IMG/VR virus record: IMGVR_UViG_3300025141_000030
Strand: one strand, 5' to 3'
DNA from: a virus
Length of the DNA: 64,000 nucleotides
This document shows, one piece after another, positions 1 to 49,020 of this stretch (the first letter of the stretch is position 1; the number at the start of each line of letters is the position of its first letter). The position numbers and the translations under genes were made by a program. The notes under the pieces are model-generated. The model ran no database searches. It was given only the letters and a program-made list of their open reading frames with translations, and was not told the origin of the DNA.

Positions 1-129
1 GTGCACGAGCGTGGCCACGCCGATTGGTTCTTAGATTCGAATGAGGCCCTTAAACACAATTTGGCAAACCATATTGGAACTCCGCGACTAGAGGTTGAGG
101 TTGGGATTGCATTTAATTTTTATGCATAG
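1..129 (+). CDS. 3' end of a probable ClpP-like protease (partial)
   Basis: Frame 1 reads VHERGHADWFLDSNEALKHNLANHIGTPRLEVEVGIAFNFYA* (TAG 127-129). DWFLDSNEALKHNLANHI resembles the ClpP C-terminal D(W/Y)xxxxEAxxxGLxDxI segment. Only 42 codons are visible. Confidence 0.5.
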   Translation: MHERGHADWFLDSNEALKHNLANHIGTPRLEVEVGIAFNFYA

Positions 130-131
130 CA

Positions 132-159
132 TGTAAAAACTCTTTCCTTGCTGTATTAT
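132..159 (+). promoter_or_regulatory. Class A promoter candidate TGTAAA-N16-TATTAT
   Basis: TGTAAA 132-137 and TATTAT 154-159, followed by an AAGGAG RBS and ATG 178. The same architecture recurs elsewhere in the window. Confidence 0.65.
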
Positions 160-177
160 TCAAGTAAGGAGTGAGAA

Positions 178-606
178 ATGAAAGATTGGATACCTCCAAA
201 ATCTCCACACGGCCTGATCCAGGAAGATTTATGGCCAGACCCGTGGAAAATTTTAGTTGCCTGCCTGCTCTTAAATCTAACGACTCGAAAGCAGGTTGAC
301 AAGGTAATTGATGGGCTTTTTGAACGATATCCAGCTCCCAGAAGCCTTGCCACTGCGCAAGAGGAAGATCTCCATGGCATGCTTCGCTCGCTAGGTATGT
401 GGCGTAAGCGTGCTAAGACATTGATCCGGTTTTCTAATGAATTTTTAGAAGCAGACTGGACAACCGCAAAGGACCTTTATGGTTGCGGGAAGTATGCTGA
501 CGACGCGTGGCATATTTTTTGCGTGGGAGACTGGCGGCAGGTTGCGCCCAGTGATCACGCCCTAAACGATTATCATAATTTTTTAAAGGATGAATTAGAT
601 GCCTGA
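178..606 (+). CDS. MBD4-type HhH-GPD mismatch (T/U:G) DNA glycosylase, catalytic domain only
   Basis: PPKSPHGLIQE..DPWKILVACLLLNLT, GCGKYADDAWHIFC and DHALNDYHNFL parallel the eukaryotic MBD4 glycosylase domain (PPRSPFNLVQE..DPWKLLIATIFLNRT..GIGKYGNDSYRIFC..DHKLNKYHDWL), including the catalytic Asp position. Confidence 0.85.
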   Translation: MKDWIPPKSPHGLIQEDLWPDPWKILVACLLLNLTTRKQVDKVIDGLFERYPAPRSLATAQEEDLHGMLRSLGMWRKRAKTLIRFSNEFLEADWTTAKDLYGCGKYADDAWHIFCVGDWRQVAPSDHALNDYHNFLKDELDA

Positions 607-1408
607 GGGTCCCGAGTGTCGTCAAATCGGTATCCAGCTCGCGAAGAGGGTCTCGAATAGAAAGCTGGTCGATATTAAGATACTGAGCGGCCGCTATGAG
701 AAGCACGGCCCACCCACTGGCTTTGACAAGATAATGGAGTGGACTCCGATTGGAATTCAAGGGGCCGGGGTACACGGTAAGTTCTTATTCTTTCTATTGG
801 ACGCCGAGTGGAGCATTTGGTCTACGTTAGGAATGACAGGTTCATGGACAAATGAGAAGAATGAGCTGCACAGTCGCATTGAATTTGTCTTAAATGACGG
901 ATCAATATTTTTTACTGATTCTAGAAATTTTGGGACCCTTAAGTTTGTGCGGGGAAAACAGCAACTTATTGACAAGCTGGAGTCCTTAGGCCCAGATCTT
1001 CTTGCTGAGGAGATTGATGACTTTAAATTTGCTGAGCATCTCATGAGAAAAAAGACAAAGACAATCGCTCAGGCACTTATGGATCAGGGCGTTGTGTCTG
1101 GTATCGGCAACTATGTAAAAGCTGAAGCGCTATACAATGCTAAGATATCGCCTCATCGCTTAGTGTCAGATTTAGATATACATGAGATGTCTGCACTAAA
1201 TACGTCAATTCGAAAGGTCCTAGTTGAGAGCTTTGAGTCTGGCGGTGCAACAATTAAAACTTATGCTGACATGAACGGTAAAATAGGAGAGTTCAGTCAG
1301 CGATTTGCCGTGTATGGACAGCGAAGCGATCCGCTCGGCAATGATGTTGTCAAGGAAAAAACAAAGGATGGTAGGATGACACATTGGGTGCCGTCCATCC
1401 AGAGATAA
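599..1408 (+). CDS. Fpg/Nei family DNA glycosylase/AP lyase (zincless type)
   Basis: N-terminal MPEGPE, HGK, LGMTG, DxRxFG and the H2TH motif LMDQGVVSGIGNYVKAE. The C-terminus has GRMTHWVP without Cys zinc ligands. Confidence 0.92.
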   Translation: MPEGPECRQIGIQLAKRVSNRKLVDIKILSGRYEKHGPPTGFDKIMEWTPIGIQGAGVHGKFLFFLLDAEWSIWSTLGMTGSWTNEKNELHSRIEFVLNDGSIFFTDSRNFGTLKFVRGKQQLIDKLESLGPDLLAEEIDDFKFAEHLMRKKTKTIAQALMDQGVVSGIGNYVKAEALYNAKISPHRLVSDLDIHEMSALNTSIRKVLVESFESGGATIKTYADMNGKIGEFSQRFAVYGQRSDPLGNDVVKEKTKDGRMTHWVPSIQR

Positions 1409-1420
1409 AAAGGAGAAAAA

Positions 1421-1648
1421 ATGGCATATAAATTGAGTGATAATGTTTTACGTAGGATTGTTCAGGTGATGCAGGAGGGCCTGCTGACAGGAACCGATAT
1501 TACCGATCACATGAGGATGATTCGACTTGAGGAAAATGTTGATGATACGACCCAGCTTGTTTTAACTGATGAGTACAAGGGGATTGTGGAGAATCAGCAT
1601 GAGACAATGCTTCATGAGATTGAGAATATTAAGACGTCGGAAAACTAA
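1421..1648 (+). CDS. Hypothetical protein
   Basis: AGGAG RBS; coupled to the next gene by a TAATG overlap. Confidence 0.7.
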   Translation: MAYKLSDNVLRRIVQVMQEGLLTGTDITDHMRMIRLEENVDDTTQLVLTDEYKGIVENQHETMLHEIENIKTSEN

Positions 1649-2025
1649 TGAGTGAGGACAGGCTTAATGACCTCTTTGAGATGAGGATTAATTTTATGGA
1701 GGCAATTAAAAAGAGCCCTGTTAATGGGGCACCCCCCTGGCCGCTGGATCTTTCCACAAAGGAGCACCAGCAGTATGTCAGGGATATTGCACTTCGTGGT
1801 GTGGAGGAGATGTTTGAGGCACTCCAGCACCTCAAGAATTGGAAGCCCCATCGCCAGACATCAGTCACTGATTTTGACAAGGATGAGTTTTTGGAAGAGA
1901 TAGTTGACGCCTTTAATTACTTTTTTGAGCTGATTCTACTGGCAGGTTTTACGGCTGATGATTTTTTTGAGATGTATGTTAAGAAGGACAAGGTGATTCA
2001 TGAAAGACTTAAAGCCGGATATTAA
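1648..2025 (+). CDS. All-alpha NTP pyrophosphatase (dimeric dUTPase/MazG/T4 gp56-like fold)
   Basis: EEMFEA...WKPH...EEIVD pattern (ExxE..ExxD metal motif plus the W-K-x-W/H segment of dimeric dUTPases). Confidence 0.75.
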   Translation: MSEDRLNDLFEMRINFMEAIKKSPVNGAPPWPLDLSTKEHQQYVRDIALRGVEEMFEALQHLKNWKPHRQTSVTDFDKDEFLEEIVDAFNYFFELILLAGFTADDFFEMYVKKDKVIHERLKAGY

Positions 2026-2965
2026 TTCATTTAATGGACTTCAGGCCGTCCAGCGTCAGTTTTCAGACCTATTTTTTAGTTCTGACCTCCTATCCGTCGA
2101 TGAGAAGGAGGAGATGACAAGGAGCTTTGCCTTGGCACTTCACAGTGAAGTTAGCTCACTTGTGGGTGAGATTAGTTTTAAGGATCACATAAACTCTGGC
2201 CGGTCCGTAAATACGAAAAAGATCCTGTATGAAAGTGTCGACGCCTTTCGTTATATTTTAGCTATTTTGAATTTATGGGGACATAGTTCTGATGATTTTC
2301 TTAGCGCATTTCAGAATAGGGATTCATTTCTTCATACTAGATTTGAGCTGGATAAGCGAAAATGGGAGGGGCAACCTGTTATTGTTGTTGATGTGGATGA
2401 GGTGATCTGTACGTTCAGAAAGGGATTCACTGAGTGGCTGATAGATGAGAAGGGCATTGATGTCGATGTTAATTCCAAGGAATATTATCACGTTGTGCCA
2501 ATTAAAGGTTCAGGTCATTCGCCGGAGGGCCTTTTTGAGGAGTTTATCGATTCAGGTCATTTAAGGGACCTAGACATCATCTCTGAGACTGTCGGCGTTT
2601 TAAATCAGCTTAAGCTAATGGGATTTTGGATTCACCTGCTGACTGCTCGTCCAGATAAAAACCTGCAGTGCCTCTATGACACTTACTACTGGCTGGAGAG
2701 GTCAGGTTTAAACTTTGATCGAGTTTCATTTTCACCTGAAAAAATGATCTGGCTTACAAAGACAGAATACTTTGAAAGCGAGTCTGTCGTTTGTGCCATT
2801 GATGATTCTGTGAAACACACCATGGAGTATGCAAAGCACGGTGTTAAAGTTGCATCACCTAAGATGTCATACAATAAGGAGCTTCGAAATCAGGAGAATG
2901 TGACAATTTACAAGACATCTCAAGAGTTGCTTGATACAATAACACAGTTATCGGGAATGAGATAG
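2000..2965 (+). CDS. Fusion: MazG/dUTPase-like domain plus HAD 5'(3')-deoxyribonucleotidase-like domain
   Basis: The N-half has ALHSEVSSL..YESVDAFRY (degenerate all-alpha PPase). The C-half has HAD motifs VDVDEVI, LLTAR, K and IDDS. Confidence 0.65.
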   Translation: MKDLKPDINSFNGLQAVQRQFSDLFFSSDLLSVDEKEEMTRSFALALHSEVSSLVGEISFKDHINSGRSVNTKKILYESVDAFRYILAILNLWGHSSDDFLSAFQNRDSFLHTRFELDKRKWEGQPVIVVDVDEVICTFRKGFTEWLIDEKGIDVDVNSKEYYHVVPIKGSGHSPEGLFEEFIDSGHLRDLDIISETVGVLNQLKLMGFWIHLLTARPDKNLQCLYDTYYWLERSGLNFDRVSFSPEKMIWLTKTEYFESESVVCAIDDSVKHTMEYAKHGVKVASPKMSYNKELRNQENVTIYKTSQELLDTITQLSGMR

Positions 2966-3225
2966 TGTCAGGCGACGAACGTGATTATAAGGACCTGTAT
3001 TTTAAGGTCCGCCGTGAGTCTTTCATTGCCCAGGTTGCTTACAGTAAGGGTATTGAGCTGGTGAATCTAATTCTTAATCCTGGATCGATTGGTAGCATCG
3101 AGGACTGTGCTCAGCAGTTTAGGGAATCGATTAAAAGCGCCCAACAGTTTATGGACCAGGTCGATGCTGGTGATACTGAGCTGGCAAATTATTTTGACAT
3201 TAGGGCCCGAGAAGATGCTTCTTAG
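2965..3225 (+). CDS. Hypothetical protein
   Basis: GTG start overlapping the upstream stop; in operon context. Confidence 0.55.
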   Translation: MSGDERDYKDLYFKVRRESFIAQVAYSKGIELVNLILNPGSIGSIEDCAQQFRESIKSAQQFMDQVDAGDTELANYFDIRAREDAS

Positions 3226-3379
3226 CGGCTCCCTAGTCAGTTTTATATTTAAAGAGTCAACCACCCTGGGAGTTGTGCTGGGTGACTCTGAGAAATCTAA
3301 ACAAATGTACCGTGTCTTATATGATAATAAGGTTGGTCATTTTTTTGAAAAACAACTTGAACCTATAGAAGGAGACTAA
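3215..3379 (+). CDS. Small hypothetical protein (possible SH3-like beta fold)
   Basis: Re-started at ATG 3215 (MLLSGSLVSF...); fills the gap between neighbours. Confidence 0.45.
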   Translation: MLLSGSLVSFIFKESTTLGVVLGDSEKSKQMYRVLYDNKVGHFFEKQLEPIEGD

Positions 3380-3380
3380 A

Positions 3381-3818
3381 TTGAAAGTTTACATTGCATC
3401 CCCATTTTTTAACCCCAAGCAGATTGATCAGGTCGAATATATTAAGGAGGCCCTCACCAAGTTGGGATATGAGTATTTTTCACCCAAGGATTATTTTGTT
3501 CTGGATCCTAATGCTACCGCCGAGGATCGAAAGAGGATCTTCGACGTGAATGTCGAGAAGATAGAGTGGGCAGATTTTGTCCTGTGTAATACAGAGGCCA
3601 AGGATCTTGGCACTATCTGGGAGGCTGGCTTTTCTCACGGTATTGGCAAGCCTGTCGTATTTTTTGCTGAGGGACTGCCGGATGGTAAGTTTAATGTCAT
3701 GCTCTCAGAGGCAGGAGTGTCAGTCAACACTTCTAGGGAGCAGCTTTATTCTTATCTTCTTGACTGTCGTGAGCAGGATTTTCTAATTAACATTCCATAC
3801 ACGGGGCAGACACAGTAA
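3381..3818 (+). CDS. Nucleoside 2-deoxyribosyltransferase / Rcl(DNPH1)/MilB-like nucleotide N-glycosidase
   Basis: KVYIASPFF N-terminus, DLGTIWEAG with the catalytic Glu, GKPVV and NVML are hallmarks of the NDT fold. GGAG RBS precedes the TTG start. Confidence 0.85.
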   Translation: MKVYIASPFFNPKQIDQVEYIKEALTKLGYEYFSPKDYFVLDPNATAEDRKRIFDVNVEKIEWADFVLCNTEAKDLGTIWEAGFSHGIGKPVVFFAEGLPDGKFNVMLSEAGVSVNTSREQLYSYLLDCREQDFLINIPYTGQTQ

Positions 3819-4834
3819 TGATGTACAATAAACTAGAGTATGTTTGGATAGACGGCGGCATGCCGTGGGGAATTAGGTCTAAGATAAAGGTCGTGCCTGG
3901 TTTCGATCCTACTTTAGATGATGCCCCAACGTGGAGTTTTGACGGCTCTTCGACCCACCAGGCCACGGGTTCGGACTCTGACTGTATTTTAAAGCCAGTG
4001 AGAACGTATCCTCATCCCTATGCAGAGGATTCACTTATCGTTTTGTGCGAAGTGTTGACAGCACTGGGAGAGCCTCATGTTTCTAATCGAAGGACTGCGT
4101 TCTTAGATGTACTGGAAAAATATCGGGACGATGAGCCTTGGTTTGGGTTTGAGCAGGAGTACTCTATAATTCAAAATAATAGGCCTCTTGGATTTCCAGA
4201 CTTTGGCTTTCCCAGTCCTCAGGGAATCTACTACTGTTCAGTTGGCGGCGATCGATCTTTCGGTCGGCACATCGCTAACGCTCACCTAGATGCATGTCTC
4301 ATGGCGGGAATAAACATTTGTGGCACTAATGCCGAGGTTGCCCCGGGCCAGTGGGAGTTTCAGATCGGGGGTCCTAACATTGATGCTGATGTTGTGTGCG
4401 ACGATATGTGGGTGGCTCGATACCTGCTCCTTTACACGGCAGAGGAAGGCGGACTCACGGTTACTTTTGAACCTAAGTGTGTGCCTGGGGACTGGAATGG
4501 TGCCGGATGTCACACTAATTTTTCTACTAGTAAAATGCGTGAGCCCGGTGGCATGAAATACATAGAGGCCGCCTGTAACGCACTATCGGCCAGGACTAAG
4601 GAGCACCTAAGTAACTATGGAGATGATATTGAACTTCGACTGACAGGCGATCATGAGACCTGTTCATATCGAGAGTTTAAGTGGGGAGTCGCTGATCGGA
4701 CTGCTTCGATTAGGATTCCGCGACAGGCTGCGTTGGATGGAATGGGATATCTTGAGGATCGTCGCCCTAATGCTAATTGTGATCCTTATATTGTTGCCCG
4801 GTTAATGATTAAAACTGTGTGTGACGAGTTATAA
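3818..4834 (+). CDS. glnII: Glutamine synthetase type II
   Basis: EYVWIDG, WSFDGSST, PWFGFEQEY, NAEVAPGQWEFQIG, DWNGAGCHTNFST, RLTGDHET and GYLEDRRPNANCDPY; about 340 aa, as expected for GSII. Confidence 0.95.
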   Translation: MMYNKLEYVWIDGGMPWGIRSKIKVVPGFDPTLDDAPTWSFDGSSTHQATGSDSDCILKPVRTYPHPYAEDSLIVLCEVLTALGEPHVSNRRTAFLDVLEKYRDDEPWFGFEQEYSIIQNNRPLGFPDFGFPSPQGIYYCSVGGDRSFGRHIANAHLDACLMAGINICGTNAEVAPGQWEFQIGGPNIDADVVCDDMWVARYLLLYTAEEGGLTVTFEPKCVPGDWNGAGCHTNFSTSKMREPGGMKYIEAACNALSARTKEHLSNYGDDIELRLTGDHETCSYREFKWGVADRTASIRIPRQAALDGMGYLEDRRPNANCDPYIVARLMIKTVCDEL

Positions 4835-4883
4835 ACTTAATTTAATTTTGATATATTGGTATATCTCGTAAAGGAAAACTAAA

Positions 4884-5816
4884 ATGACAAATTGCAGCAA
4901 CGGATTTATGCACATTGGTGTAGAGCTTCTTGATTCCCCAGACATTCCATTTACAACTTTTTGGAATTGGTTTAGGCAGACGTGGATCAGTCTTCATGAT
5001 GAAGAGTACGACCACACTAATCCAGAGCATATTAAGGCATGCCATGATGTCGCCAACAGAAGGGCACTTCCTACTCCTATGGAGGCGACCACCTTTCAGT
5101 TTAAGGTGACCGGCCTGTCGAGGGTAGCTCTTGCACAGATTACCCGGGGTCGTGTTGGATGGGCCTATAACGTTGAGTCACAGATGCCCCAGCACATTCG
5201 GCATTCTGTGACCGTCCCTAGGAACATCTACGAGCATCCTGAGTTTGGTGAGAGGGCAAGGAATTTGACTAGCCAACTGCAGGGACTTTATGATGAGATG
5301 TACGATGCTGGTATTCCGCCACAGGACTGTCGCTACATGACAATGCACGGCCAACAGACTAGCATGGTTTTTCATGTTAACTACGCTGCCCTTTTGGGCT
5401 ATTTTGCTCGTCGATGTGAAAATGGCCTGACTGATGAACTGAATTTAGTCGGCAGGATGATGCGGCATGCCCTGATCACCACTCACCTCAATTCAGATGG
5501 GACAGACAAAATTCCTGGATCTGGCTGGTCATTTTTAATTGGTAAGCTAGAGGCAATGGGAGGTGATAAGGCTTGCCTTAATAACGACCTTGTATTCGGA
5601 AATACGGGCAGGTCCCCCGCAGCGGGTGCCTGGGTTCCTAACTTACTTGATGGAACTTGTGATTATGACTTCTCTAAGTCTGCCTGGTACTACGAGCTCT
5701 GCGAGCTTCCTGAGCATCTCCTCTTCCCCGGCGAGCAGGAGATGATTAACGATTTTAAGTCTGTAGGATTTATTGGTCGACTCCAAAAATTGGACTCGAC
5801 TGCCAACAATGGCTAA
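4884..5816 (+). CDS. ThyX (flavin-dependent thymidylate synthase)-fold protein with a divergent active site
   Basis: TPME..FQF..GLSRVALAQITRGR..AYNVESQ, YDEMYDAGIPPQDCRY and FARR align to ThyX. However RHR reads RGR and SxRY reads SQMP. Confidence 0.75.
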   Translation: MTNCSNGFMHIGVELLDSPDIPFTTFWNWFRQTWISLHDEEYDHTNPEHIKACHDVANRRALPTPMEATTFQFKVTGLSRVALAQITRGRVGWAYNVESQMPQHIRHSVTVPRNIYEHPEFGERARNLTSQLQGLYDEMYDAGIPPQDCRYMTMHGQQTSMVFHVNYAALLGYFARRCENGLTDELNLVGRMMRHALITTHLNSDGTDKIPGSGWSFLIGKLEAMGGDKACLNNDLVFGNTGRSPAAGAWVPNLLDGTCDYDFSKSAWYYELCELPEHLLFPGEQEMINDFKSVGFIGRLQKLDSTANNG

Positions 5817-6099
5817 GAAAAAGCCAGCACATAAGAAAGCTGAACCGGAGACACAGTGCGGTGTTACAATTGGACAGGTCGTGTGGTGCACACTTTGTAC
5901 CGGTGCTGTAGGTCATGGTAGGATTGTTACTGTTCACCCCTTGAATAAGGAGGGTCCTGCCATGACCATTTATGACGAAATATCTGGTGCCTATCGTGTT
6001 GGCCTGATTGAGACTATAACTCCCGGCCGGCCGAAGAAGGATCAGATTTTAAAATTTATGACTGGCCTTGAAAAGAAGTGTTGCGAGGCGAAAAAGTAG
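5809..6099 (+). CDS. Hypothetical protein
   Basis: Likely start at ATG 5809 (MAKKKPAHKK...), overlapping the upstream stop. Confidence 0.55.
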   Translation: MAKKKPAHKKAEPETQCGVTIGQVVWCTLCTGAVGHGRIVTVHPLNKEGPAMTIYDEISGAYRVGLIETITPGRPKKDQILKFMTGLEKKCCEAKK

Positions 6100-6104
6100 A
6101 GAAG

Positions 6105-6665
6105 ATGCGGGAAAAGCAGTGGGTAATAATTTTTGACGGTCCTGACGGCTGCGGCAAAACTAACATTGCCCAGGCTCTTTCGCAGGCCTTAGGCATTCCC
6201 TACTTTAAAAATACTGACGAACACAGGTATTTCAGGAGCGACCCTGACTATTTTATCCACGCAATTCGATACGTGGACACATATTTTACCTCCTATCTTG
6301 AGACTACAAACAGCTCCGTAATATTAGATAGGGCATGGCCGTCGGAGTGGATTTACTCTAAGGCGATGGGTAGGCGGACAGACGAGAATGTCCTGTTGGA
6401 CCTTGATAAAAGGCACGCTAAATTAGGGACAATTATAATCAGTCCCTTTAGGACCGACTATAAAAACGTTGATGAGCAGTACGATGAGGTAAAACGTCGA
6501 CTGCCACAAATTGATAAACTGTACGAGGAGTTTGCCAAGTGGTCCAGGTGTCACGTTCTAAGAATAAACGTTGACAACGAGGACCTCCAGCACCAGCTTC
6601 ACGTAATTTCAGATTTTCTGCAAATTACAGGTAACAGCGCTGATAAATTCTATTATATTAGATAA
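6105..6665 (+). CDS. dNMP kinase (thymidylate kinase-like P-loop protein)
   Basis: IIFDGPDGCGKT Walker A and ILDR motif of the TMPK/dNK family; likely start ATG 6105. Confidence 0.8.
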   Translation: MREKQWVIIFDGPDGCGKTNIAQALSQALGIPYFKNTDEHRYFRSDPDYFIHAIRYVDTYFTSYLETTNSSVILDRAWPSEWIYSKAMGRRTDENVLLDLDKRHAKLGTIIISPFRTDYKNVDEQYDEVKRRLPQIDKLYEEFAKWSRCHVLRINVDNEDLQHQLHVISDFLQITGNSADKFYYIR

Positions 6666-6705
6666 GTGAGGTCAAGTGAGGCCATGCAATGTCATTTAAT
6701 GACAT
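6664..6705. promoter_or_regulatory. Operator candidate: direct repeat plus perfect palindrome
   Basis: AAGTGAGG occurs twice (6664-6671, 6674-6681). ATGTCATT-T-AATGACAT (6689-6705) lies directly before TATAAT and the HTH gene. Confidence 0.55.
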
Positions 6706-6723
6706 CTGGTATAATTATAGCGT

Positions 6724-7029
6724 ATGAGGCTAAGACAGTTCGCCGATGAATTAGGCATTTCATATTCGACTGCCCTTCGAATGTTTAGGAGGGATGAAAT
6801 TCCTGGTGCGTACAAGCTTCCTAGTGGCACAATTGTAATTCCTGAGGGCGCCATAGTGGCTCTAGGGCAACCCGATTTAGTTTCCGATGGAAACCTTATA
6901 GGTGCCATGGAGATCATTGAGGAGGCCTCTAGGGATGTCTTAGGGACTGAGGATGCCACTGATTTAATGCAGTTAATTCAGCGGGTTCTTGTGGAGTATA
7001 CTGGTGGGATAACTTATGACAGCGATTAG
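6724..7029 (+). CDS. MerR/IS607-TnpA-like HTH DNA-binding protein lacking a recombinase domain
   Basis: MRLRQFADELGISYSTALRMFRRDEIPGAYKLPSGTIVI resembles the N-terminal HTH of IS607 serine transposases. No YARVS catalytic motif follows. Confidence 0.7.
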   Translation: MRLRQFADELGISYSTALRMFRRDEIPGAYKLPSGTIVIPEGAIVALGQPDLVSDGNLIGAMEIIEEASRDVLGTEDATDLMQLIQRVLVEYTGGITYDSD

Positions 7030-10000
7030 AGTCATAGAGGCCTCAGGGTCCAATGGTGCAATTCAGTTCGTTTCTGGCTCCGGTAATTTTGACGGAGATG
7101 CCCGCCTTGTATTTGACAGCACATCTGGCCTGCTGAAACTAACTGGGTCCCTTGAGTCCACACTTGGACTGAGCGGCTCCCTTACACAGCTCACCGACGG
7201 CACATCCTATCTCGTTGCTGGTGATAATATCACCATTGTGTCATCCTCTAACGGTGGAGTGACGCTTCACGCCGCCTCAAGCGGCGGCGGCGGGGCTGGA
7301 GATCCAAACGCATCTTTCGTGGTGATGTCCCTAACAGGATCACTTAATGCCGACAGGCAGCTGACAGCCGGCACTGGGTTAAACCTCAACGATGGGGGAG
7401 CCAAGGGTAACGTTACCTTTAGCGTAGATGACTCCACGGTTGCCACCATATCAGGCTCAACGTTTACGGGCGCCGTTGATTTTAATGCTGGCTTGAGCGG
7501 TTCACTTACACGACTTATTGGGGGTACCTCCTACCTGGTTGCCGGCAGTAACATCACCATCACCTCAGCATCCAATGGACAGGTCACCATCACGGGTCAA
7601 TCTGGTGACATAACAGACGTGACAGCCGGGACAGGCCTGACCGGTGGAGGATCATCAGGTGATGTCACCCTGGCTGCCGACGACTCCGTCGTCGCCACCC
7701 TGACAGGATCACAGTTCACCGGCCAGGTCGGCTTCCAGTCCAATGTGAGTACCAGCGGTTCTTTTATCGCCTCAGGTGACTCCACATTCTCAGGTCCGGT
7801 TTATCTGTCAGGCTCAGTTTCGGATTTCACTGCAACTGGTTCTGCCAAGTTCAATGCAGGTTTAAGCGGCTCCCTTACAAAGTTAGTGTCAGGACTGTCC
7901 TACCTGGTCGCTGGCTCGAACGTAACTATCACGTCGGCCTCCAACGGTCAGGTGACCATCGCCGGCACCGCCGGGGACATTACGTCAGTTACCGCAGGCA
8001 CAGGATTAACGGGTGGAGGATCGTCCGGGGATGTCACCCTAGGTGTTGATAATTCAGTTGTGGCCACCCTGACAGGATCCACTTTTACTGGGCCAGTGCA
8101 CCTATCAGGTTCAGTTTCTGATTTCGTTGCAACAGGTACTGTTCAGTTTAATGCGGGTCTTCGTGTTCCTGATAGTGCGGGTGATAATTTTTACACAGTC
8201 GCCGGCACATCATACAACATCGGATCAGATGTTACTGTTACTTTCCCCAACTTAACTGGTGATGATGAGCTCGTTACCCGAACTGCCACACAGGTCCTAA
8301 CCAATAAGACCCTGACCGCGCCTACTATTAATAATGCCCTCAACATAACAGCAGACGCAATTACAGGTTCGTATCTTCGAACGCTGGGTGACCTGAAGGT
8401 CGACGGTGATATGACGGTCTTTGGGACAGCATCGTTCGTTGACACTGAGCACATTCGTGTGGCTGATTCCTTAATCTTACTCAATTCTGGTGCAGTCGGT
8501 GCCAGGAGCGTCTCGGCCATTGCCTTCGCCTCCGGCTCAGCCACTGCCGACCAGGCATTCATCTTCGGTCCGGATGGTACTTCCACAGGTCCCCAACCAA
8601 CCTTCGCCTTCGCAAGGGTCGACGTTAAGGATGGTGCTCTCAACCCGGTCCTGGCATCCTTCAGCAACCTGGTCGATATTAAGGCAGCCGGCCTCAGCGG
8701 TTCCCTGACACGATTGTCAGACAACACATCCTACTTGGTCGCGGGAGACAACATAACAGTCACCTCGGCCTCCAATGGCCAGGTGACCATCGCAGGGACG
8801 GCTGGTGATATAACGGGAGTGGCGGCAGGTACTGGCTTAACAGGTGGGGGTACCTCCGGTGACGTCACACTGGCTGCCGACGACTCCGTCGTCGCCACCC
8901 TGACAGGATCACAGTTCACCGGCCAGGTCGGCTTCCAGTCTAACTTAAGTGTAACAGGTTCCGCACATTTTGCCGCCGGCTTGAGTGGCTCGTTAACACG
9001 GCTTATTGGTGGTGCCTCATACTTGGCCGCCGGCAGTAATGTCACTATCACATCAGCCTCTAACGGACAGGTGACCATCGCAGGAACGGCTGGTGACATT
9101 ACAGCTGTCACCGCTGGTACAGGCCTGTCCGGGGGCGGGACATCAGGTGACGTCGCTCTTGCGATAAGGGACTCCATAGTTGCTACCATATCAGGTTCCC
9201 AGTTCACCGGCCAGGTCGGGTTTCAGTCAAACCTCAGTGCATCTGGATCCTTAATAGCATCAGGAGACACGACGATTAACGGCCCAATATACCTGTCAGG
9301 CTCTGTCTCAGACTTTACTGCCACGGGTTCAGCTAGGTTCAATGCCGGACTAAGTGGCTCTTTGACACGATTGGTGGGTGGTGCTTCTTATATTGCCGCG
9401 GGTGACAACATAACGGTCACCTCAGCCTCTAATGGGCAAGTCATCATCTCTGGTCTTGCGGGTGATATTACATCGGTAACTGCTGGGACTGGACTGACAG
9501 GGGGCGGTGCCTCAGGCGATGTCACCCTTGCCGTTGATGACTCTGCAGTTGCCACCCTGACAGGATCACAGTTCACCGGCCAGGTTGGCTTCCAGTCCAA
9601 TCTTAGTGCATCTGGATCCTTAATCGCCTCGGGTGATACGACATTTAGCGGTCCAGTTTATCTGTCTGGATCAGTTTCGGACTTCACCGCTACTGGATCT
9701 GCTTCATTTAATGCTGGATTAAGCGGTTCACTCACACGACTCACTAGTGGTACCTCTTACTTGGCTGCTGGTTCTAATGTAACGATTACTTCTGCATCTA
9801 ACGGCCAGGTAACGATTGCCTCCTCCGGCGGAGGTGGAAGTATTTCGATATCGTCTGGCTCAACGACAGTGGGAACTGTTAGTAGTATAGACCTTTCACA
9901 GATGGGACTAGTTCAGAACCTAGGTGGGGGAAATGTTGCCGTTACCGGAGCAATAGGAAGCGCCGAGGACGGAACTTATACAGACGGCCTTTTTACTGAT

Positions 10001-24195: not shown

Positions 24196-27100
24196 ATGGC
24201 AATGACTAAAGAAATTTTCTCACGGATCCGGCCCCCCGACCGGTATGTATCACTTCACAACCACAGCACATTTAGTCCTTTCGACGGCCTAGGTGAACCC
24301 AAGGAACACATTGATTTTGTGCTTTCAAATGAGATGGATTCCTGGGCCCTTACGGATCACGGCAATGGTAACGGCCTGGCACACGCTCACGCCCATGCCA
24401 AGAGGCTTAAGTCAAAGGGTCGAAATTTTAGACAGATCTACGGGGTCGAGTTTTACTTCGTGCCAGACTTAGCAGAGTGGCAACAGCAGTACAACACATA
24501 TCGTCAGGAAAAGAAGCGACCTCCAGAGTCCGAAGACGCCGGTCACGTTGTTGAGGACGCCGATGAGACCAGGTCAAAGCGTTCGGCTACTGATTCCTTT
24601 AAGAAGAGATATCATGTTGCTGTGACCGCCTATAACCACACAGGCCTCCAGAACCTATTCACGTTGGTCAAGAAGAGCTTTAAGTTTGGCTTCTATAGGT
24701 TTCCTCGTATTGACTTTAAGATGCTTAAGGAGCACTCCGAGGGCCTGACTGTGACGACTGCCTGCGTGGGCGGGTATCCCAGCGGCCTAATATATCAGAG
24801 TTTCCCCGATGTTGGATTTATGGACCTTAAGCCCGATCTTGTGGATGATCCTATTGTCATTCGAGAGATTATGGGGAGACTTGAGAACTGTGTCGATCGA
24901 TTCGTGGACGCAGTCGGCCAGGAGAATTTCTTTCTAGAGCTTCAGATGAATAAGATGAACGCCCAGAACCTGACAAATCGGTGTCTGATTGACCTCTCCC
25001 AGAAGACGGGTGTTCCTCTTGTCGTCACAAGCGACGCCCATTATCCAGGTCCAGACTACTGGGAGGCCCGAGAGCTTTATCGTAAGTTACGACCAGGCAT
25101 GCTGGATAAGGAGGGAGCCAATGTGCTACCTGCTCTTGAGGAGCTCCAGTCAGAACTATACCCGAAGAATGCCTCACAGATGTGGGAGGAGTACCAACGG
25201 CAGTATGCCGATAATGAATTCTACCAGGGCACAGAGGAACTAGTCCGTGATGCTATTGAGCGGACTCATGACATGGCCTGGCAACGGTATGAGGAGGTCT
25301 GGTTCGACCAGTCAGTTAAGCTCCCATCTTTTGACAGTCCTGAAAAGTCTGCCTTTAACCAGCTCGTTGACTTGGTCAAGGAGGGCTTGAATCGCGAGGG
25401 CCTCTCTGATAACGAGGAGTACCTACAGCGAGCGTACATGGAACTGTCAGACATTAAGTTTTTGGGCTTTGAGAATTACTTCTTAACTCTTCAAAAGACA
25501 CTGAAGGTTTCAGAGAACGGCACGCTCCCAGGTCCAGGCCGAGGCTCCGGTGCCGGATCCTTAGTCAACTATCTTTTAGACATCACGCATGTCGATCCCC
25601 TCAAGCACGATCTGCTGTGGGAGCGATTCTTGCATCGAAACAAGGCCGGCTGGCCTGATATTGACCTAGACATTGGCAATCGTGATGTGGTTATTGATGC
25701 CGCCAGGCAGCTGTTTGGTGATGATTCGGTCATCCCAGTGTCGAATTTTAACACCCTAAAACTTAAGTCGCTGGTCAAGGATGTCTCTAAGTTCTATGGC
25801 ATTCCGTTTCATGAGGTCAATGCCGTGACAGGACCGCTGGAATCCGAGGTCCAGAATAAGGCTCGCGATCCTAACATGGAGAAGTCAATGTTTGTGCTTC
25901 GACACGAGGACTGCATGAAGTACTCTTCCCGGTATCGTGAGTTCATGCAGGCATATCCACAGGTAGAGGAGAAGGTTGTTGACCTATTCATGCAGAATAG
26001 GTCCATCGGCCGCCATGCCGGTGGCGTGCTAATTTGTCCTGAGCTCGAACGACACATGCCTGTTATCAAGGTTCGCGGAGAATTTCAGACATCCTGGTCA
26101 GAGGGTGTCAATATTCGTAACCTGGAGGAGAACGGATTTTTAAAGTTTGACTTCCTAGGGCTCAAACAGATGAAGATGGTGGAGGACTGCATTAGGCAGA
26201 TTGTAGCTAAGAACCTGGGCCGAGAACCTAGTTTTAGTGAGGTCAAGGCCTTCTATGATGAAAACCTCAACTGTAGGTACCACGAGCCGGAAGATGCCAG
26301 CGTGTTTAGCTATGTCTACCAGCAGGGGCGTTGGCCTGGAATCTTTCAGTTTACTTCGACAGGGGCCCGTAAGTTCTGCGTAGCCGCACAGCCAAAAAAT
26401 ATTACCGAGCTCGCCGCGATCACTGCTATCTATCGGCCCGGCCCGCTCAAGGCCAACGTGCACATCAAGTATGTTAAGGCCAGGAGGGACCCAAGCTCAG
26501 TCGAGTTTGACCATCCGGTACTGAAGGATGTGCTAGGCCCAACCTACGGTTTTATCGTGTTTCAGGAGCAGTTCATGCTCCTGGCCCAGAAGCTCGCTGG
26601 TTTTACTCCAGGCGAGTCCGACAAGATGAGAAAGACCCTTGTCAAGAAGGACCTGACCTCCCTCGGTAAGAAGGTCACCGAGAAAGAGGAACTCCGCAAG
26701 AAGTTTGTTAGCGGCGCTGTCGAGGTTGGAAATATGCCCCGTCGTGATGCCGAGAGCCTATTTGAGAAGATTGCGTTCTTCTCACTGTACGGCTTTAATA
26801 AATCACACGCCGTGGCGTATGCCATCGCCTCCTATTATGGAGCATGGCTGATGACACACTACGAACACGAGTGGCTTTCAACCTGCCTGCAGTCTGAGAA
26901 TCACAACGTCAAGAAGCTTCCAGTCATGATTGCCGAGATTAAAAAGCTCGGATATAAGTTCGCCTCTGCTGATATTAACTTGTCAGGCCGAACGTGGACA
27001 TACTCACTCGAGGCAAAGGCTCTCGTTCCACCGCTTAGCTCATTCAAGGGTGTCGGTGATGCTGCCATGGGGGAGATCCTAGAGAATCGACCGTATCGAA

Positions 27101-27750
27101 ATCTTGACGAGCTGCTTTATGACGAGACAGGAGCGTGGAAGCACTCCAAGATGAATAAGCGCTGCTTTGCAGCACTGACAAAGATGGAGGCGTTTGGGTC
27201 ACTCGAGGAGTTTGATGCCGGTATCCTAAATAACCATCGGCAGATGCACGACCTTATTATTGAAAATTACGATGTGTTAAAGAAGAATCGCTATGGGATG
27301 TCTATTCGAAAGGCGAGAAAGCTCGATGCACCATCCCAGCTTCCTCCTCTGCTGGGTGCTGTTTCAAATATCGAAGACTGGACCCGCGTCGAGAAGATTT
27401 CAAATTTTGCCGAGATTGGTGGCTCCGTAAACGAGGAGCTTGTTTTCCCAGCAGAGGTGATGGCAAAAATTGAGGAGTCTCAGCTTCCATCCCTTCCGAG
27501 TCTATCAGGAAACATTAGGAAAATTGCATGGGGATGCCTGCAGGATATTATCAAGAAGACGTCTAAGAACGGCAAGACATTTTACAGAATCAAGGTGATC
27601 GATCCGCAGAGCAACTACTGTTGGCTTAGGGTCTGGGGTGATATTCCCCCGGCCGCTGCACCTTACACTATTTGGATCTTTGACGTGTCTAATAACGAAC
27701 AGTGGGGCGCCAGCACCAATTCATCTAAAATGAGGCCTGTCGTTGTCTAA
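24196..27750 (+). CDS. dnaE: DNA polymerase III alpha subunit (family C)
   Basis: PHP domain (SLHNHSTFS, TDHG, GVE, SDAHY), GRGSGAGSLV, PDIDLD, GRHAGG, KFDFLGL and YGFNKSHAVAY. No intein is apparent. Confidence 0.97.
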   Translation: MAMTKEIFSRIRPPDRYVSLHNHSTFSPFDGLGEPKEHIDFVLSNEMDSWALTDHGNGNGLAHAHAHAKRLKSKGRNFRQIYGVEFYFVPDLAEWQQQYNTYRQEKKRPPESEDAGHVVEDADETRSKRSATDSFKKRYHVAVTAYNHTGLQNLFTLVKKSFKFGFYRFPRIDFKMLKEHSEGLTVTTACVGGYPSGLIYQSFPDVGFMDLKPDLVDDPIVIREIMGRLENCVDRFVDAVGQENFFLELQMNKMNAQNLTNRCLIDLSQKTGVPLVVTSDAHYPGPDYWEARELYRKLRPGMLDKEGANVLPALEELQSELYPKNASQMWEEYQRQYADNEFYQGTEELVRDAIERTHDMAWQRYEEVWFDQSVKLPSFDSPEKSAFNQLVDLVKEGLNREGLSDNEEYLQRAYMELSDIKFLGFENYFLTLQKTLKVSENGTLPGPGRGSGAGSLVNYLLDITHVDPLKHDLLWERFLHRNKAGWPDIDLDIGNRDVVIDAARQLFGDDSVIPVSNFNTLKLKSLVKDVSKFYGIPFHEVNAVTGPLESEVQNKARDPNMEKSMFVLRHEDCMKYSSRYREFMQAYPQVEEKVVDLFMQNRSIGRHAGGVLICPELERHMPVIKVRGEFQTSWSEGVNIRNLEENGFLKFDFLGLKQMKMVEDCIRQIVAKNLGREPSFSEVKAFYDENLNCRYHEPEDASVFSYVYQQGRWPGIFQFTSTGARKFCVAAQPKNITELAAITAIYRPGPLKANVHIKYVKARRDPSSVEFDHPVLKDVLGPTYGFIVFQEQFMLLAQKLAGFTPGESDKMRKTLVKKDLTSLGKKVTEKEELRKKFVSGAVEVGNMPRRDAESLFEKIAFFSLYGFNKSHAVAYAIASYYGAWLMTHYEHEWLSTCLQSENHNVKKLPVMIAEIKKLGYKFASADINLSGRTWTYSLEAKALVPPLSSFKGVGDAAMGEILENRPYRNLDELLYDETGAWKHSKMNKRCFAALTKMEAFGSLEEFDAGILNNHRQMHDLIIENYDVLKKNRYGMSIRKARKLDAPSQLPPLLGAVSNIEDWTRVEKISNFAEIGGSVNEELVFPAEVMAKIEESQLPSLPSLSGNIRKIAWGCLQDIIKKTSKNGKTFYRIKVIDPQSNYCWLRVWGDIPPAAAPYTIWIFDVSNNEQWGASTNSSKMRPVVV

Positions 27751-28008: not shown

Positions 28009-28578
28009 ATGAGCCCAAGAGCGAATCCTGAGCTGGTCATTTTTACGGGACCCATGTTTAGCTCGAAGACGACTAGGCTTTTAGACATCTTGGATAGGTC
28101 TACCTATCAGAAAAAGAAGTCAATTTTATTTAAGGCCAGCATGGACAATAGGTATTCTAGGTCCGCCGTCTGCACCCATTCGGGTGTTAAGATGGAGGGC
28201 ATTGCTATTGATTCCGGATCTTCGCTGCTGGAATTCCTATCCCAGTCAGATGAGGTCTATGACACCATCGCCGTCGATGAGGCATTTATGATCGAGGGTG
28301 TGGCTGAGGTTCTTGTTTGGTTGTTTAAGAGGGGAGTTAACATTTATGTGTCATCGCTAGCACTTTCATATAGCGTTAGTGTTTTTGATGAGATGAGTGT
28401 TTTGTTACCGTGGGCAACAAGGGTTGAGGTCTGCACCGCAGTTTGTACAAAGTGTGGGAGTGACGCGTTTTATACCCATAAGAAATGTGACGATGGGAAA
28501 GTGATCGCCGTGGGCGGTGATGATATGTACGAGCCTAGGTGTTGGAAGCACCATCTTATTAGTGAGCAGGATGATTAA
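28009..28578 (+). CDS. tdk: Thymidine kinase (type II)
   Basis: GPMFSSKTT, DNRY, VDEAF, zinc-site CTKC...RC and VGGDDMYEPRC. Confidence 0.93.
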   Translation: MSPRANPELVIFTGPMFSSKTTRLLDILDRSTYQKKKSILFKASMDNRYSRSAVCTHSGVKMEGIAIDSGSSLLEFLSQSDEVYDTIAVDEAFMIEGVAEVLVWLFKRGVNIYVSSLALSYSVSVFDEMSVLLPWATRVEVCTAVCTKCGSDAFYTHKKCDDGKVIAVGGDDMYEPRCWKHHLISEQDD

Positions 28579-29666: not shown

Positions 29667-29855
29667 GTGGAAATAATGATTGTAGTACTTTGTATCGCCG
29701 CCGCATTCTACGCCTGGAGTCGATCGAGAATGTCGACGCATCTCCTGAGGTTTCAAATTTATGTCCTGTCAAAGAGTATAACAGAATCCCTTCACCGCAC
29801 TGAAGAGAATTGTCGACAGATGGAGGGTAATAATGAGCCGCCCGACATGGGATGA
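29667..29855 (+). CDS. Small membrane-anchored protein
   Basis: N-terminal hydrophobic helix. Confidence 0.45.
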   Translation: MEIMIVVLCIAAAFYAWSRSRMSTHLLRFQIYVLSKSITESLHRTEENCRQMEGNNEPPDMG

Positions 29856-30255
29856 GATCTGGATGGGCGTTGCGATGATAATCGCCCGAAGGTCGGTCGA
29901 TCCAAGGAATAAGGTGGGCGCCGTCATTGTCAACCATGACGGTACACAGGTTCTCTCCGTGGGATATAATGGTGATTATAAGGGAGGGCCTAATATTGTA
30001 GAGTCTCACGATCCCGGGGAGTCAGGCATGATACACGCCGAGATTAATGCGCTCATTAAGCTGGACTACAACTATCCTCAGGACAAGGTGATGTACCTGA
30101 CACTGTCTCCATGTCGAATGTGTGCCAAGTCCATTGTTAACGCTGGAATTGGTGAGGTGGTCTACAGTCAGGAGTATCGAGACACCTCAGGAGTGGACAT
30201 ACTTCAGGCCGCTGGGATAAAAGTCAGGAAGTTCCCTTCGGATAACAATATTTAA
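29833..30255 (+). CDS. dCMP deaminase (ComEB-like)
   Basis: RPTWDE, KVGAVI, GYNG, HAEINA and SPCRMC zinc motifs. Confidence 0.92.
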   Translation: MSRPTWDEIWMGVAMIIARRSVDPRNKVGAVIVNHDGTQVLSVGYNGDYKGGPNIVESHDPGESGMIHAEINALIKLDYNYPQDKVMYLTLSPCRMCAKSIVNAGIGEVVYSQEYRDTSGVDILQAAGIKVRKFPSDNNI

Positions 30256-31849: not shown

Positions 31850-32545
31850 ATGGATTATAAGGATATCACTAAAAATATACGTGAGTCGATGGGACTCCCC
31901 AATGACGAGGCTGAGAAGGAAACGCTTACCGAGGCTTTTGTAGCCCAGCCTAAGAAGTTCGATCTCGGCACCGAGAAGCTCAGTCAAAAGACGAAGACAG
32001 CACACCTGGAGCTCTATAACAACTATATATCGTGCTTCAATCGCACCTCAGCTGAACTGGATGGGGTTTCACGCGACGACGCTAACTCATCGTGCTCCCT
32101 TTTTAGGGACATCAAGCTGGCCGAACAGTTTAACATGGGCGCAGTCTACTTGCACGAACTTTACTTTGCCAATATCGCCTCTCACGCCTCGGAGCTGTCC
32201 ATGGACTCCCTCACCTATATGCGACTTGCTCGCGACTGGGGATCGTTCGACCTGTGGCAGCGGGATTTTATCGCCTGCGCCATGTCAGCTCGTTCCGGCT
32301 GGGCAGTCTGCTGCTACAACACATACATCCAGGGCTATGTCAACGTTATAGTCGACGGCCACACTGGAAACGTGCCGATGGGATGCATTCCAGTTATTGT
32401 GATGGACATGTGGGAGCATGCCTACTACAAGGACTACCTCAATAATAAGAAGCAGTACCTCTATAACATGATGAGTGAGCTCAACTGGGACGTTATCGAG
32501 AATCGAGTCAAGCGCGCCGAGCGGATGGCGCAGGTTGCGAGGTGA
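31850..32545 (+). CDS. Fe/Mn superoxide dismutase family protein
   Basis: DMWEHAYY signature, LHELYF, AHLELY and SGWA. It has an N-terminal extension of about 30 aa. Confidence 0.88.
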   Translation: MDYKDITKNIRESMGLPNDEAEKETLTEAFVAQPKKFDLGTEKLSQKTKTAHLELYNNYISCFNRTSAELDGVSRDDANSSCSLFRDIKLAEQFNMGAVYLHELYFANIASHASELSMDSLTYMRLARDWGSFDLWQRDFIACAMSARSGWAVCCYNTYIQGYVNVIVDGHTGNVPMGCIPVIVMDMWEHAYYKDYLNNKKQYLYNMMSELNWDVIENRVKRAERMAQVAR

Positions 32546-38249: not shown

Positions 38250-38651
38250 ATGAAACTTAATGAGATTTTTGGCGTACGCTCAATGAAGGAATCGTTTGGA
38301 CGAGGTAACTCTTACGTCCCTCCCCTTATAAGGGAGTTTGCAGGCGAACCTGAACCTGAGGAGGACCCAGGCCTTAAGGGAGATGAGTGGAATATGCTCC
38401 ATGATCCCAATCGCCTAGTTCGGCAGTTTGATTTTGATGATGCCAGTATTATGAGGCGTTTTGTGACTGAAGTACTGAGTTTTCAGGAGGATGCTAATCA
38501 CCACGGCTCACTGTTGATTGAGAATGATTCCATCCGCGTAGAGGTGTGGACACATGATGTGAATGATGTTACTGAGCTGGATCGTGAATATGCCGCTGAG
38601 CTTTCTGATATCTACGGAGATGTGATGGGGACTTACAGTAATGTCGGATGA
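38250..38651 (+). CDS. Pterin-4-alpha-carbinolamine dehydratase (PhhB/PCD-like) with N-terminal extension
   Basis: W..L.R.FDF, NHH, VWTHD and VTELD motifs. Confidence 0.75.
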   Translation: MKLNEIFGVRSMKESFGRGNSYVPPLIREFAGEPEPEEDPGLKGDEWNMLHDPNRLVRQFDFDDASIMRRFVTEVLSFQEDANHHGSLLIENDSIRVEVWTHDVNDVTELDREYAAELSDIYGDVMGTYSNVG

Positions 38652-44297: not shown

Positions 44298-45902
<1,605 letters not shown>

Positions 45903-48237: not shown

Positions 48238-49020
48238 ATGGCATCTACACTACAGCCTTATTTTAAGGAACTGTCTAAAAACAAGCTTTTAACCAAGGAG
48301 CAGGAGATTGAACTGTCGAAAAAGATCGAGATAGGAGATTCTTTTTCGAGGAATAAGATGATTGAGTCGAATCTTCGACTAGTCATTTCAATTGCTAAAA
48401 AGTACCAAAACCGCGGTGCGTCCCTCGAGGACTTAATTCAGGAGGGTAATATCGGCCTGATGAAAGCAGTCGACAAGTTTGACTGGCGTCGAGGGTGCAG
48501 GTTTAGCACTTACGGCTGTTGGTGGATCCGACAGTCTATTACTCGACACCTGGAGGATGTTGGCAGGACCATTCGTGTGCCAGGGCACGTTACAGGACTA
48601 TACATCAAGATTAAGCGCCTGACCGAGGAGTATGAGGACGAGTTTGGACACAAGCCTACGAATCCCGAAATTGCCGAAATTTTAGGTGTGACCGAGAGTC
48701 AGGTTGACAATGTGATGAAGACTAATGTCTGCACTGTGTCGATCGATGCTGTCTTTCCAAATAGCGAGGACGCTTCCAATGATATGCACAGGCGACTTCA
48801 CGATGACAGCGCCCCTATGCCGGACGAGATCCTTGAGCAGGAGCAGTTGCTAGATCAGGTCAGGGGTGTGCTACACACTTTGGACAGCAAGGAAGAGAAG
48901 ATTATCAGGCTTCGTTTTGGCATTGCCGAAGAATTAACTTCCGATTCCCCAGAATTTGCGATTACTAAAGATGAAATGCGCCGTATCTTAAATAGTGCCG
49001 CGGCACCCGTGGAGAAATAA
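48238..49020 (+). CDS. RNA polymerase sigma70-family factor (regions 1.2-4, no region 1.1)
   Basis: [47 protein letters not shown] and IIRLRFG. The region 4.2 HTH looks degenerate. Confidence 0.93.

Follow-up and report, generated by a model that had tools for sequence, protein, structure and literature searches.

What might a phage accomplish with a tight block of pyrimidine-handling enzymes assembled around an aberrant relative of the thymidylate synthase ThyX? The question is raised by a 64,000-nucleotide (nt) stretch of DNA (IMG/VR record IMGVR_UViG_3300025141_000030; hereafter, the window) that comes from an uncultivated T4-like marine phage and in which twelve closely packed genes, with neighbours that abut or overlap by 1-26 nt, occupy positions 178-6665 of the plus strand. 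A first-pass annotation had proposed that this block encodes a modified-pyrimidine pathway. All the genes it named, namely those for an MBD4-type glycosylase, Nei, all-alpha NTP pyrophosphatases, a HAD fusion, an enzyme of the nucleoside 2'-deoxyribosyltransferase (NDT) fold, glutamine synthetase (GSII), a ThyX-like protein and a kinase, were found, intact and co-oriented. In our assessment, the chances are about even that the block is an instance of a widespread, virus-only nucleotide-pool cassette that makes a non-canonical pyrimidine deoxynucleoside triphosphate (dNTP). The core of the cassette consists of an NTP pyrophosphatase, a 5'-nucleotidase, an NDT-fold enzyme, the ThyX-like protein and a kinase similar to thymidylate kinase (TMPK).

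The ThyX-like protein (4884-5816) scores 70.5 bits against the Pfam family Thy1 (PF02511; cut-off, 24.8) and stays below the ThyX equivalog threshold of TIGR02170 (51.1 bits against a cut-off of 87.9). An AlphaFold2 model of the protein (pLDDT 92), used as a query for Foldseek, retrieved PolB (4P5B) and ThyX (1O26), in both cases aligned over the core only (E ~1e-9, probability 1.00, TM score by target 0.67-0.71), and comparison of the family profile with canonical phage ThyX by hhalign produced a match at 93%. The divergent ThyX fold proposed earlier is thus borne out, and the protein appears as a conserved, rewired paralogue, not a drifting copy: the canonical RHR-X7/8-S-x-R-Y signature is replaced by RGR-X8-S-Q-M-P, which is invariant in 32 aligned members (47-87% identity). 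This alignment contains about 50 invariant positions, many of them within a C-terminal extension of about 110 residues that has no counterpart in ordinary ThyX. An exhaustive profile search collected about 30 full-length cluster representatives, with identity down to 20%, all of which lack the Arg that follows the motif Ser; the wider relatives lack the motif Arg/Tyr as well and display invariants of their own, namely SR, TR, RY, R177 and DE-x-N. A search of PDB sequences with the family profile was uninformative, with spurious top matches (repeats in designer PPR proteins) and ThyX appearing only at E ~3e-4.

To map individual residues, the ThyX-like profile was aligned with canonical phage ThyX, and this alignment was combined with that of one such ThyX to Thermotoga maritima ThyX. 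In the T. maritima numbering, the equivalents of Q75, R78, R80, N85, E86, S88, R147, N163, R174, E182 and T55/E58 are kept, including the phosphate-binding positions Q75, R78, R80, S88, R147 and R174, and those of H53, H79, R90, Y91, E144, R165 and H178 are replaced. The replacement of His53, His79, Arg90, Tyr91, Arg165 and His178 extends to every family member, and in the profile alignment His53, His79, Arg165 and His178 correspond to Leu, Gly, Ala and Gly, respectively. In T. maritima ThyX, we take H53 to stack on folate, R90 to lie at the uracil, and H79, R165 and H178 to lie at FAD. Given the residues that are kept and replaced and these presumed roles, the ThyX-like protein still appears suited to binding a nucleoside monophosphate and, probably, a flavin, with the base pocket and the site of the one-carbon donor apparently changed. 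The similarity to ThyX (T. maritima TM0449, 1O26) and to the UMP/dUMP methylase PolB (4P5B) thus covers the fold and the retained nucleotide-binding residues, whereas the differences from both include the extra C-terminus, the replaced motif residues and the frequent coexistence with a canonical ThyX.

The family to which this protein belongs is known to date exclusively from viral and metagenomic sequence. A database search with the protein yielded 150 proteins at E <= 0.001, with identities of 47-87% among the best 120 of the 150; the sources of the matches listed are JGI, ENA, Logan, Tara and NCBI. No member was detected by pattern scanning in 185,579 species genomes of bacteria and archaea. 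When 50,697 isolate phage records were searched with tblastn, the query P0001 gave only partial matches, at 32% identity or less, to ordinary ThyX, and two distant family members gave no match; in BFVD, full-length matches came exclusively from uncultured phages.

Examination of the gene neighbourhoods defines the partners of the ThyX-like gene. Among 23 related loci, with ThyX-like proteins 58-88% identical, a kinase gene lies downstream of the ThyX-like gene in 22, directly adjacent to it in most; the NDT enzyme is encoded in 20, an intact pyrophosphatase in 17 and the HAD fusion in 15. A second, distant set comprises 38 groups, in which the ThyX-like proteins are only 25-43% identical and the phages themselves are quite different, some with complete 50-59 kb genomes with terminal repeats and others with Prim-Pol/D5 replication. 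The arrangement typical of these groups is a run of four consecutive co-oriented genes encoding an NDT enzyme, an HD-domain YfbR-like 5'-deoxynucleotidase, the ThyX-like protein and a TMPK-like kinase; the HD nucleotidase is present in 34 of the 38 groups, the NDT enzyme and the kinase in 33 each, and all three partners in 28. In addition, 17 of the groups have a trimeric dUTPase, either as a fusion with the HD domain or encoded nearby. With an HD nucleotidase and a dUTPase in these distant groups, the roles are therefore conserved even though the folds differ, apparently through non-homologous replacement of the HAD nucleotidase by the HD (YfbR-like) one and of the all-alpha pyrophosphatase by the trimeric dUTPase. 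The nucleotidase and the NTP pyrophosphatase also tend to be physically joined, by fusion in the distant phages and, as structure prediction suggests, probably as a heterodimer in the subfamily to which the present phage belongs.

This prediction concerns the two adjacent genes that the first-pass annotation described as encoding two all-alpha NTP pyrophosphatases, one of them fused to a HAD nucleotidase. The description stands for the product of the first gene (1648-2025), an all-alpha (MazG/dUTPase_2-like) dNTP pyrophosphatase that matches phrog_12184 (E 1e-19) and reaches PF08761 at threshold; its metal site is intact, with the acids E54/E57 (ExxE) and E83-E84/D87 (EExxD) invariant in the family alignment (A3). 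It does not stand for the second (2000-2965), in which the N-terminal domain (approximately residues 1-120) is homologous to the 1648-2025 family (E 2e-7) and yet catalytically degenerate, having lost most of the metal-binding acids, with only D81 and, mostly, E50 kept (alignment A2). The remainder of this protein (approximately residues 125-321) is a HAD 5'-deoxynucleotidase of the NT5C type with motifs I-IV intact and, in the same alignment, invariant DxDxV (D131, D133), T215, K248 and D268-D269; against the Pfam NT5C model it scores 18.9, short of the 24.8 cut-off, and the protein of one relative (L007) is annotated as PF06941. PDB sequence searches with the pyrophosphatase and the HAD fusion returned nothing useful. 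For the pair formed by the 1648-2025 product and the N-domain (residues 1-120) of the 2000-2965 product, a heterodimer was predicted with an ipSAE of 0.63, compared to 0.02 for the best control, passing a mark that is reached by 58 of 80 solved complexes and by 2 of 110 mismatched pairs; at least 85% of the contacts are shared between runs, and the partners have pLDDT values of at least 74. Because all-alpha pyrophosphatases are known dimers, this pass may only mirror the likeness of the pair to such dimers. Nevertheless, judging by the model, the nucleotidase is probably tethered to the active pyrophosphatase via the degenerate all-alpha domain.

The NDT-fold enzyme (3381-3818) matches PF05014 (E 1e-16) and the structure 6evs (E 3e-15). 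The residues Y4, D65, D75, E81 and N105 are invariant (alignment A7), so that the catalytic Tyr, Asp and Glu of the superfamily are present. Kaminski and Labesse reportedly found in 2013 that Ser/Ser at the pocket for the sugar 5' position marks Rcl, the 5'-phosphate type, as opposed to Asp/Asn in the nucleoside type; in the cassette enzyme, the presumed Asp/Asn pair of this pocket (D75 and N105) is invariant and matches 6evs. The earlier assignment to an NDT/Rcl-fold N-glycosidase accordingly holds for the NDT fold, whereas the enzyme resembles true nucleoside deoxyribosyltransferases, such as 6evs, and not clearly Rcl/DNPH1. The kinase (6078-6665), of the TMPK/dNK type, is a P-loop protein distantly homologous to thymidylate kinase (phrog_761, E 9e-11; 91.5% in the hhalign comparison with canonical phage TMPK), with a P-loop and a DR motif (alignment A4); a search against PDB sequences gave only Walker A matches.

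Another line of evidence comes from the second thymidylate synthase carried by many of the relatives. The question of whether a canonical ThyA or ThyX accompanies the ThyX-like gene receives a divided answer: a canonical ThyX does so in at least six relatives (G001-G004, L008 and L015/16), and no second ThyX or ThyA was detected in about 114 kb of the present phage, a portion that begins some 14.5 kb into the record and stops roughly 13 kb short of its end, at the end of the window. In four of five large viral records (G001-G005), the canonical ThyX scores 129-162 bits, compared to 59-70 bits for the ThyX-like protein; ThyA was not found in any of the five. In L014, a canonical ThyX gene (3-671) overlaps by 4 nt a canonical thymidylate kinase gene (668-1249), and the pair of ThyX-like and kinase genes lies 10 kb downstream of this canonical pair. 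If both pairs made dTDP, it would be difficult to see why a single genome should carry the two. Coexistence with canonical ThyX, in this case with a TMPK of its own, thus argues that the ThyX-like protein and its kinase would handle a different nucleotide. Two further features of the synthases in the relatives deserve mention. Some of the "canonical" ThyX proteins (L027 214-987, L008 2780-3397) are themselves unusual in having KHR or KYQ where RHR would be expected, and a long insertion is present in one of them. Separately, two complete genomes of 50-51 kb (G009 and G010, the records of L062 and L067) possess a second short frame of 181-186 amino acids with weak, split Thy1 matches of about 37-38 bits.

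Replacement of a pyrimidine at the level of the nucleotide pool, as practised by T4 and by phages of the SPO1/PBS2 type, employs a dNTPase, a deoxynucleoside monophosphate (dNMP) nucleotidase, a C5 modifier of the thymidylate synthase type and a dedicated kinase; in the SPO1/PBS2-type set, these are a dTTPase-dUTPase, a dTMP 5'-nucleotidase, a dUMP hydroxymethylase and an hmdUMP kinase. Every phage enzyme characterised so far as a pre-replicative modifier of pyrimidine nucleotides is, to our knowledge, a ThyA homologue. The hydroxymethylcytosine pathway of T4 (gp56 dCTPase, gp42 dCMP hydroxymethylase, gp1 dNMP kinase and td) likewise combines a paralogue from the synthase family, present beside the housekeeping synthase (in our case, in the relatives), with a dNTP pyrophosphatase and a dedicated kinase. 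The cassette described here differs from that of T4 in the ThyX rather than ThyA fold of the presumptive modifier and in the 5'-nucleotidase and NDT enzyme as fixed extra partners, and no glucosyltransferase was seen. The resemblance to SPO1/PBS2 includes an NTP pyrophosphatase, a 5'-nucleotidase, a C5 modifier and a kinase, along with a dCMP deaminase encoded elsewhere in the present genome; however, the SPO1/PBS2 modifiers are ThyA homologues, and the canonical ThyX in many relatives of the cassette does not fit total thymine replacement.

A published parallel is Bacillus phage SP-15, whose DNA contains dihydroxypentyluracil and which encodes, in addition to a canonical ThyX, a second, very divergent Thy1 protein, gp130, proposed by the authors to be a hydroxymethyluridylate synthase (PMC5977210); this role is a published hypothesis and not a measured activity. 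In the SP-15 record (KT624200), the canonical ThyX gene (gp9) adjoins dNK, an NDT gene lies 1 kb upstream of gp130 (L115 1730-2680 and 3670-4911), and an HD YfbR-like 5'-nucleotidase is encoded elsewhere (L114 325-987). The trio of a divergent ThyX-fold protein, an NDT enzyme and an HD 5'-nucleotidase thus recalls the cassette, apparently as an independent assembly. Membership of gp130 itself in the ThyX-like family was ruled out, profile comparisons being insignificant. In Z-genome phages, an NDT-family enzyme (DmtZ) and dNTPases of the dUTPase fold (DutZ) act together to eliminate the canonical nucleotide and to make its substitute (PMC12884076); unlike the cassette, this is a purine system with PurZ, and DmtZ acts on dAMP, a 5'-phosphate, whereas the cassette NDT enzyme looks nucleoside-type. 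Comparable gene sets in SP-15 and the Z-genome phages make the NDT and nucleotidase partners plausible components of such a pathway. A C5 modifier of the thymidylate synthase family is also paired with an NDT-fold enzyme in the biosynthesis of nucleoside antibiotics (MilA/MilB and BcmA/BcmB; PMC4081090, PMC5175136), in which a ThyA-fold enzyme acts on CMP and the free base is released for a natural product; the cassette, in contrast, belongs to a phage replication context and includes a kinase. Our literature search turned up neither a characterised ThyX-fold modifier nor a description of this cassette. The idea of a ThyX-fold modifier is not entirely new, having already been put forward for SP-15 gp130.

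The match between the gene content of the block and the activities required for pool-level replacement, together with the published SP-15 and Z-phage cases, is the reason why we favour a non-canonical pyrimidine as the product. More specifically, we would give somewhat less than an even chance to the proposition that the product of the ThyX-fold family is not dTMP but another pyrimidine dNMP, such as 5-hydroxymethyl-dUMP or a 5-substituted dCMP, and that the fixed partners of the family (NTPase, nucleotidase, NDT enzyme and dedicated kinase) channel this product into phage DNA. From the observed gene content and linkage, we infer the following possible succession of steps. The pyrophosphatase-nucleotidase pair would strip the canonical pyrimidine dNTP down to the nucleoside, the deoxyribose of which the NDT enzyme would transfer to another base. 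The ThyX-like enzyme would attach a one-carbon unit to the C5 position of a pyrimidine dNMP, differing from ordinary ThyX in substrate or product, for instance by adding a hydroxymethyl group or by acting on dCMP instead of dUMP, and the dedicated kinase would move the product toward the triphosphate used in replication. The logic would be that of T4 (gp56/gp42/gp1) and the SPO1-type phages, with a ThyX in place of a ThyA fold. From the modified-pyrimidine pathway as originally proposed, this scheme retains a ThyX-like paralogue that has its own kinase, pyrophosphatase, nucleotidase and NDT enzyme and coexists with canonical ThyX in at least six relatives; GSII and the MBD4-type glycosylase drop out as non-core.

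Several observations weigh against a non-canonical product, and most of them suit the main rival scheme, a deoxyribose-salvage route in which the ThyX-like protein, for all its divergence, acts as an ordinary dTMP synthase and the cassette turns host-derived deoxynucleotides into dTTP. Under this scheme, the nucleotidase would produce deoxynucleosides, the NDT enzyme would swap their base for uracil or thymine, a kinase would re-phosphorylate the nucleoside, the ThyX-like protein would methylate dUMP, and the TMPK-like kinase would yield dTDP. We regard this as a genuine possibility, albeit one that we are inclined to doubt. Every enzyme of the cassette fits such a linear salvage route: the NDT residue pattern is that of true nucleoside transferases, as expected of plain salvage, the kinase is TMPK-like, and the trimeric dUTPase that accompanies the distant cassettes points to a supply of dUMP, as in ordinary dTMP synthesis. 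Furthermore, the complete 58-kb genomes G006-G008 hold only the ThyX-like gene and no other thymidylate synthase, and none was detected in about 114 kb of the present phage; in such synthase-poor genomes, the ThyX-like protein could simply be the thymidylate synthase of the phage. On the same side of the balance are the absence of the family from all isolate phages covered by the tblastn searches, the coexistence with canonical ThyX, which is awkward for total thymine replacement, and the loss of several flavin- and folate-contacting residues, which makes even the cofactor uncertain. Ordinary dTMP synthesis, however, leaves unexplained why at least six relatives keep a canonical ThyX in addition to the ThyX-like gene, one of them with two synthase-kinase pairs. 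It is also at odds with the invariant replacement of the RHR His, the SxRY Arg/Tyr and His53, which are common to all characterised ThyX, and with the failure of the protein to reach the ThyX equivalog threshold; moreover, if dUMP were the compound wanted, it would be wasted by a nucleotidase physically coupled to an NTP pyrophosphatase.

The partial loss of the flavin- and folate-contacting residues, along with the adjacent repair glycosylases, might instead suggest pool repair or counter-defence, whereby the cassette would rebuild dNTP pools depleted or corrupted by host defences (such as a dCTP deaminase or a dNTPase), with the ThyX-like protein serving as a nucleotide-binding or regulatory subunit or acting on a damaged nucleotide. 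Enzymes that interconvert dNTPs, dNMPs and deoxynucleosides and swap bases could indeed regenerate a depleted dNTP. Nonetheless, we deem this improbable: the ThyX fold is kept, the many invariant polar residues that align with the nucleotide-binding positions of ThyX look enzyme-like, and the fixed adjacency of synthase and kinase is more in keeping with a step of biosynthesis; known defence or anti-defence families, for which no test was made, were not found at the cassette. Finally, large phages often cluster genes for nucleotide metabolism, and GSII and the MBD4-type glycosylase are indeed incidental, so the whole block might have come together by chance, its ordinary genes for nucleotide metabolism and repair having nothing in common but their place in the replication module of a large phage. 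This seems very improbable, given that the order and content of the core recur in phages whose proteins are only 25-60% identical and across different replication modules, with analogous enzymes substituted; conservation of the cluster in 20 or more related loci and, with such analogous enzymes, in the 38 distant groups, as found in the neighbourhood survey, contradicts chance.

Should the ThyX-fold family indeed produce a non-canonical pyrimidine nucleotide, it would represent a second, independent origin of pre-replicative pyrimidine modification, a ThyX-fold counterpart to the ThyA-derived one, and would give a new reaction to a flavoenzyme family already under study as a drug target. A DNA modification made by an uncharacterised pathway would then be present in hundreds of uncultivated phages, of marine and other environmental as well as human-associated origin, and many metagenomic phages would be flagged as having restriction-resistant DNA, which some sequencing methods may recover too rarely or read incorrectly. 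Should the protein instead prove to be a plain dTMP synthase, it would redefine which residues of ThyX are truly essential. The cassette is sharply bounded, compact (four or five genes) and widespread in uncultivated phages, so that the hypothesis is directly testable by expressing a few genes.

The remaining genes of the block are, for the most part, accessory. Both the glutamine synthetase and the MBD4-type glycosylase had been counted among the cassette parts, an attribution that the comparison of loci reverses: to judge from their distribution, both are local additions outside the core. The former, GlnII (3818-4834), is an accessory metabolic gene inserted in the cassette; its product matches NF041605 with 446 bits over residues 3-338, just below the 500-bit equivalog cut-off, both Pfam GS domains pass, and, apart from the phage's own contigs (L009, L010), only the closest relative (L001) carries the gene. 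A role for GlnII as an amide-forming step of hypermodification was considered and ruled out, the protein being near-canonical and absent beyond the closest relatives. The latter (178-606) is an HhH-GPD mismatch glycosylase that aligns over residues 2-138, that is, the full domain, with the catalytic domains of human and mouse MBD4 in the PDB (E 6e-39); the Asp after the HhH is kept (..KYADD.. vs ..KYGND..), and the protein ends without a Cys cluster. Only L015/L016 have a homologue close to the cassette, and the five large relatives have none. A stand-alone MBD4-type glycosylase domain in a tailed phage is unusual in itself; such an enzyme would fit the repair of deaminated 5-substituted cytosine.

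Next to it, at 599-1408, is an Fpg/Nei-type DNA glycosylase/lyase with the Pfam H2TH, Fapy_DNA_glyco and C-terminal domains (TIGR00577, 173 bits, below the 203 cut-off); Nei is a frequent neighbour of the cassette, encoded nearby in 14 of the 23 related loci. Between Nei and the pyrophosphatase, a gene for a conserved 75-amino-acid protein with no family match (1421-1648) occupies the same position in 13 of these loci. Three further small open reading frames (ORFs) are less conserved: one of 86 amino acids (2965-3225) that has no family match and a homologue only in L001 and the phage's own contig, one of 54 amino acids (3215-3379) that is a called gene in L009 and has a homologue only in L001, and one of 96 amino acids between the ThyX-like and kinase genes (5809-6099) that is a called gene in L009 and L010 and has no homologue in the other loci. 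Ordinary salvage genes, for thymidine kinase (tdk, 28009-28578; PF00265, E 2e-36) and dCMP deaminase (29833-30255; PF00383, E 1e-20), both on the plus strand, lie about 22 kb from the block and outside it, in agreement with the first-pass annotation. The boundary of the operon could not be read from a promoter and terminator scan of positions 1-7200: terminator-like sites are not in excess (6, compared to 6.0 in shuffled sequence), and the 20 promoter-like sites are about two standard deviations above the shuffled mean of 12.0 (standard deviation 3.6).

Over the 15 kb compared, the window is identical to part of a 128-kb ENA metagenome contig, and no match to phage isolates was found at the DNA level; an exact 50-mer taken from the window had no match in IMG/VR. 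Upstream, the ENA contig encodes a T4-like structural module (large terminase, Portal_T4, Gp23, gp13, sheath and baseplate) as well as UvsX/RecA, gp32, DnaB, RNR and ClpP; the window itself also encodes a DnaE-type polymerase, GroEL, a sigma factor, superoxide dismutase, GMP reductase and other metabolic genes. The combination of a T4-like head, neck, sheath and baseplate with a DnaE-type (Pol III alpha) polymerase (24196-27750) is of note in this phage, in which a fragment-like DNA_pol_A gene, for 399 amino acids, is located upstream (L030 5079-6278). The host-like metabolic and housekeeping genes of the window encode a GMP reductase/IMPDH-family enzyme (56984-57991), pterin-4a-carbinolamine dehydratase (38250-38651), phosphomannomutase (50977-51819), Fe/Mn superoxide dismutase (31850-32545), GroEL (44298-45902) and a sigma-70 factor (48238-49020).

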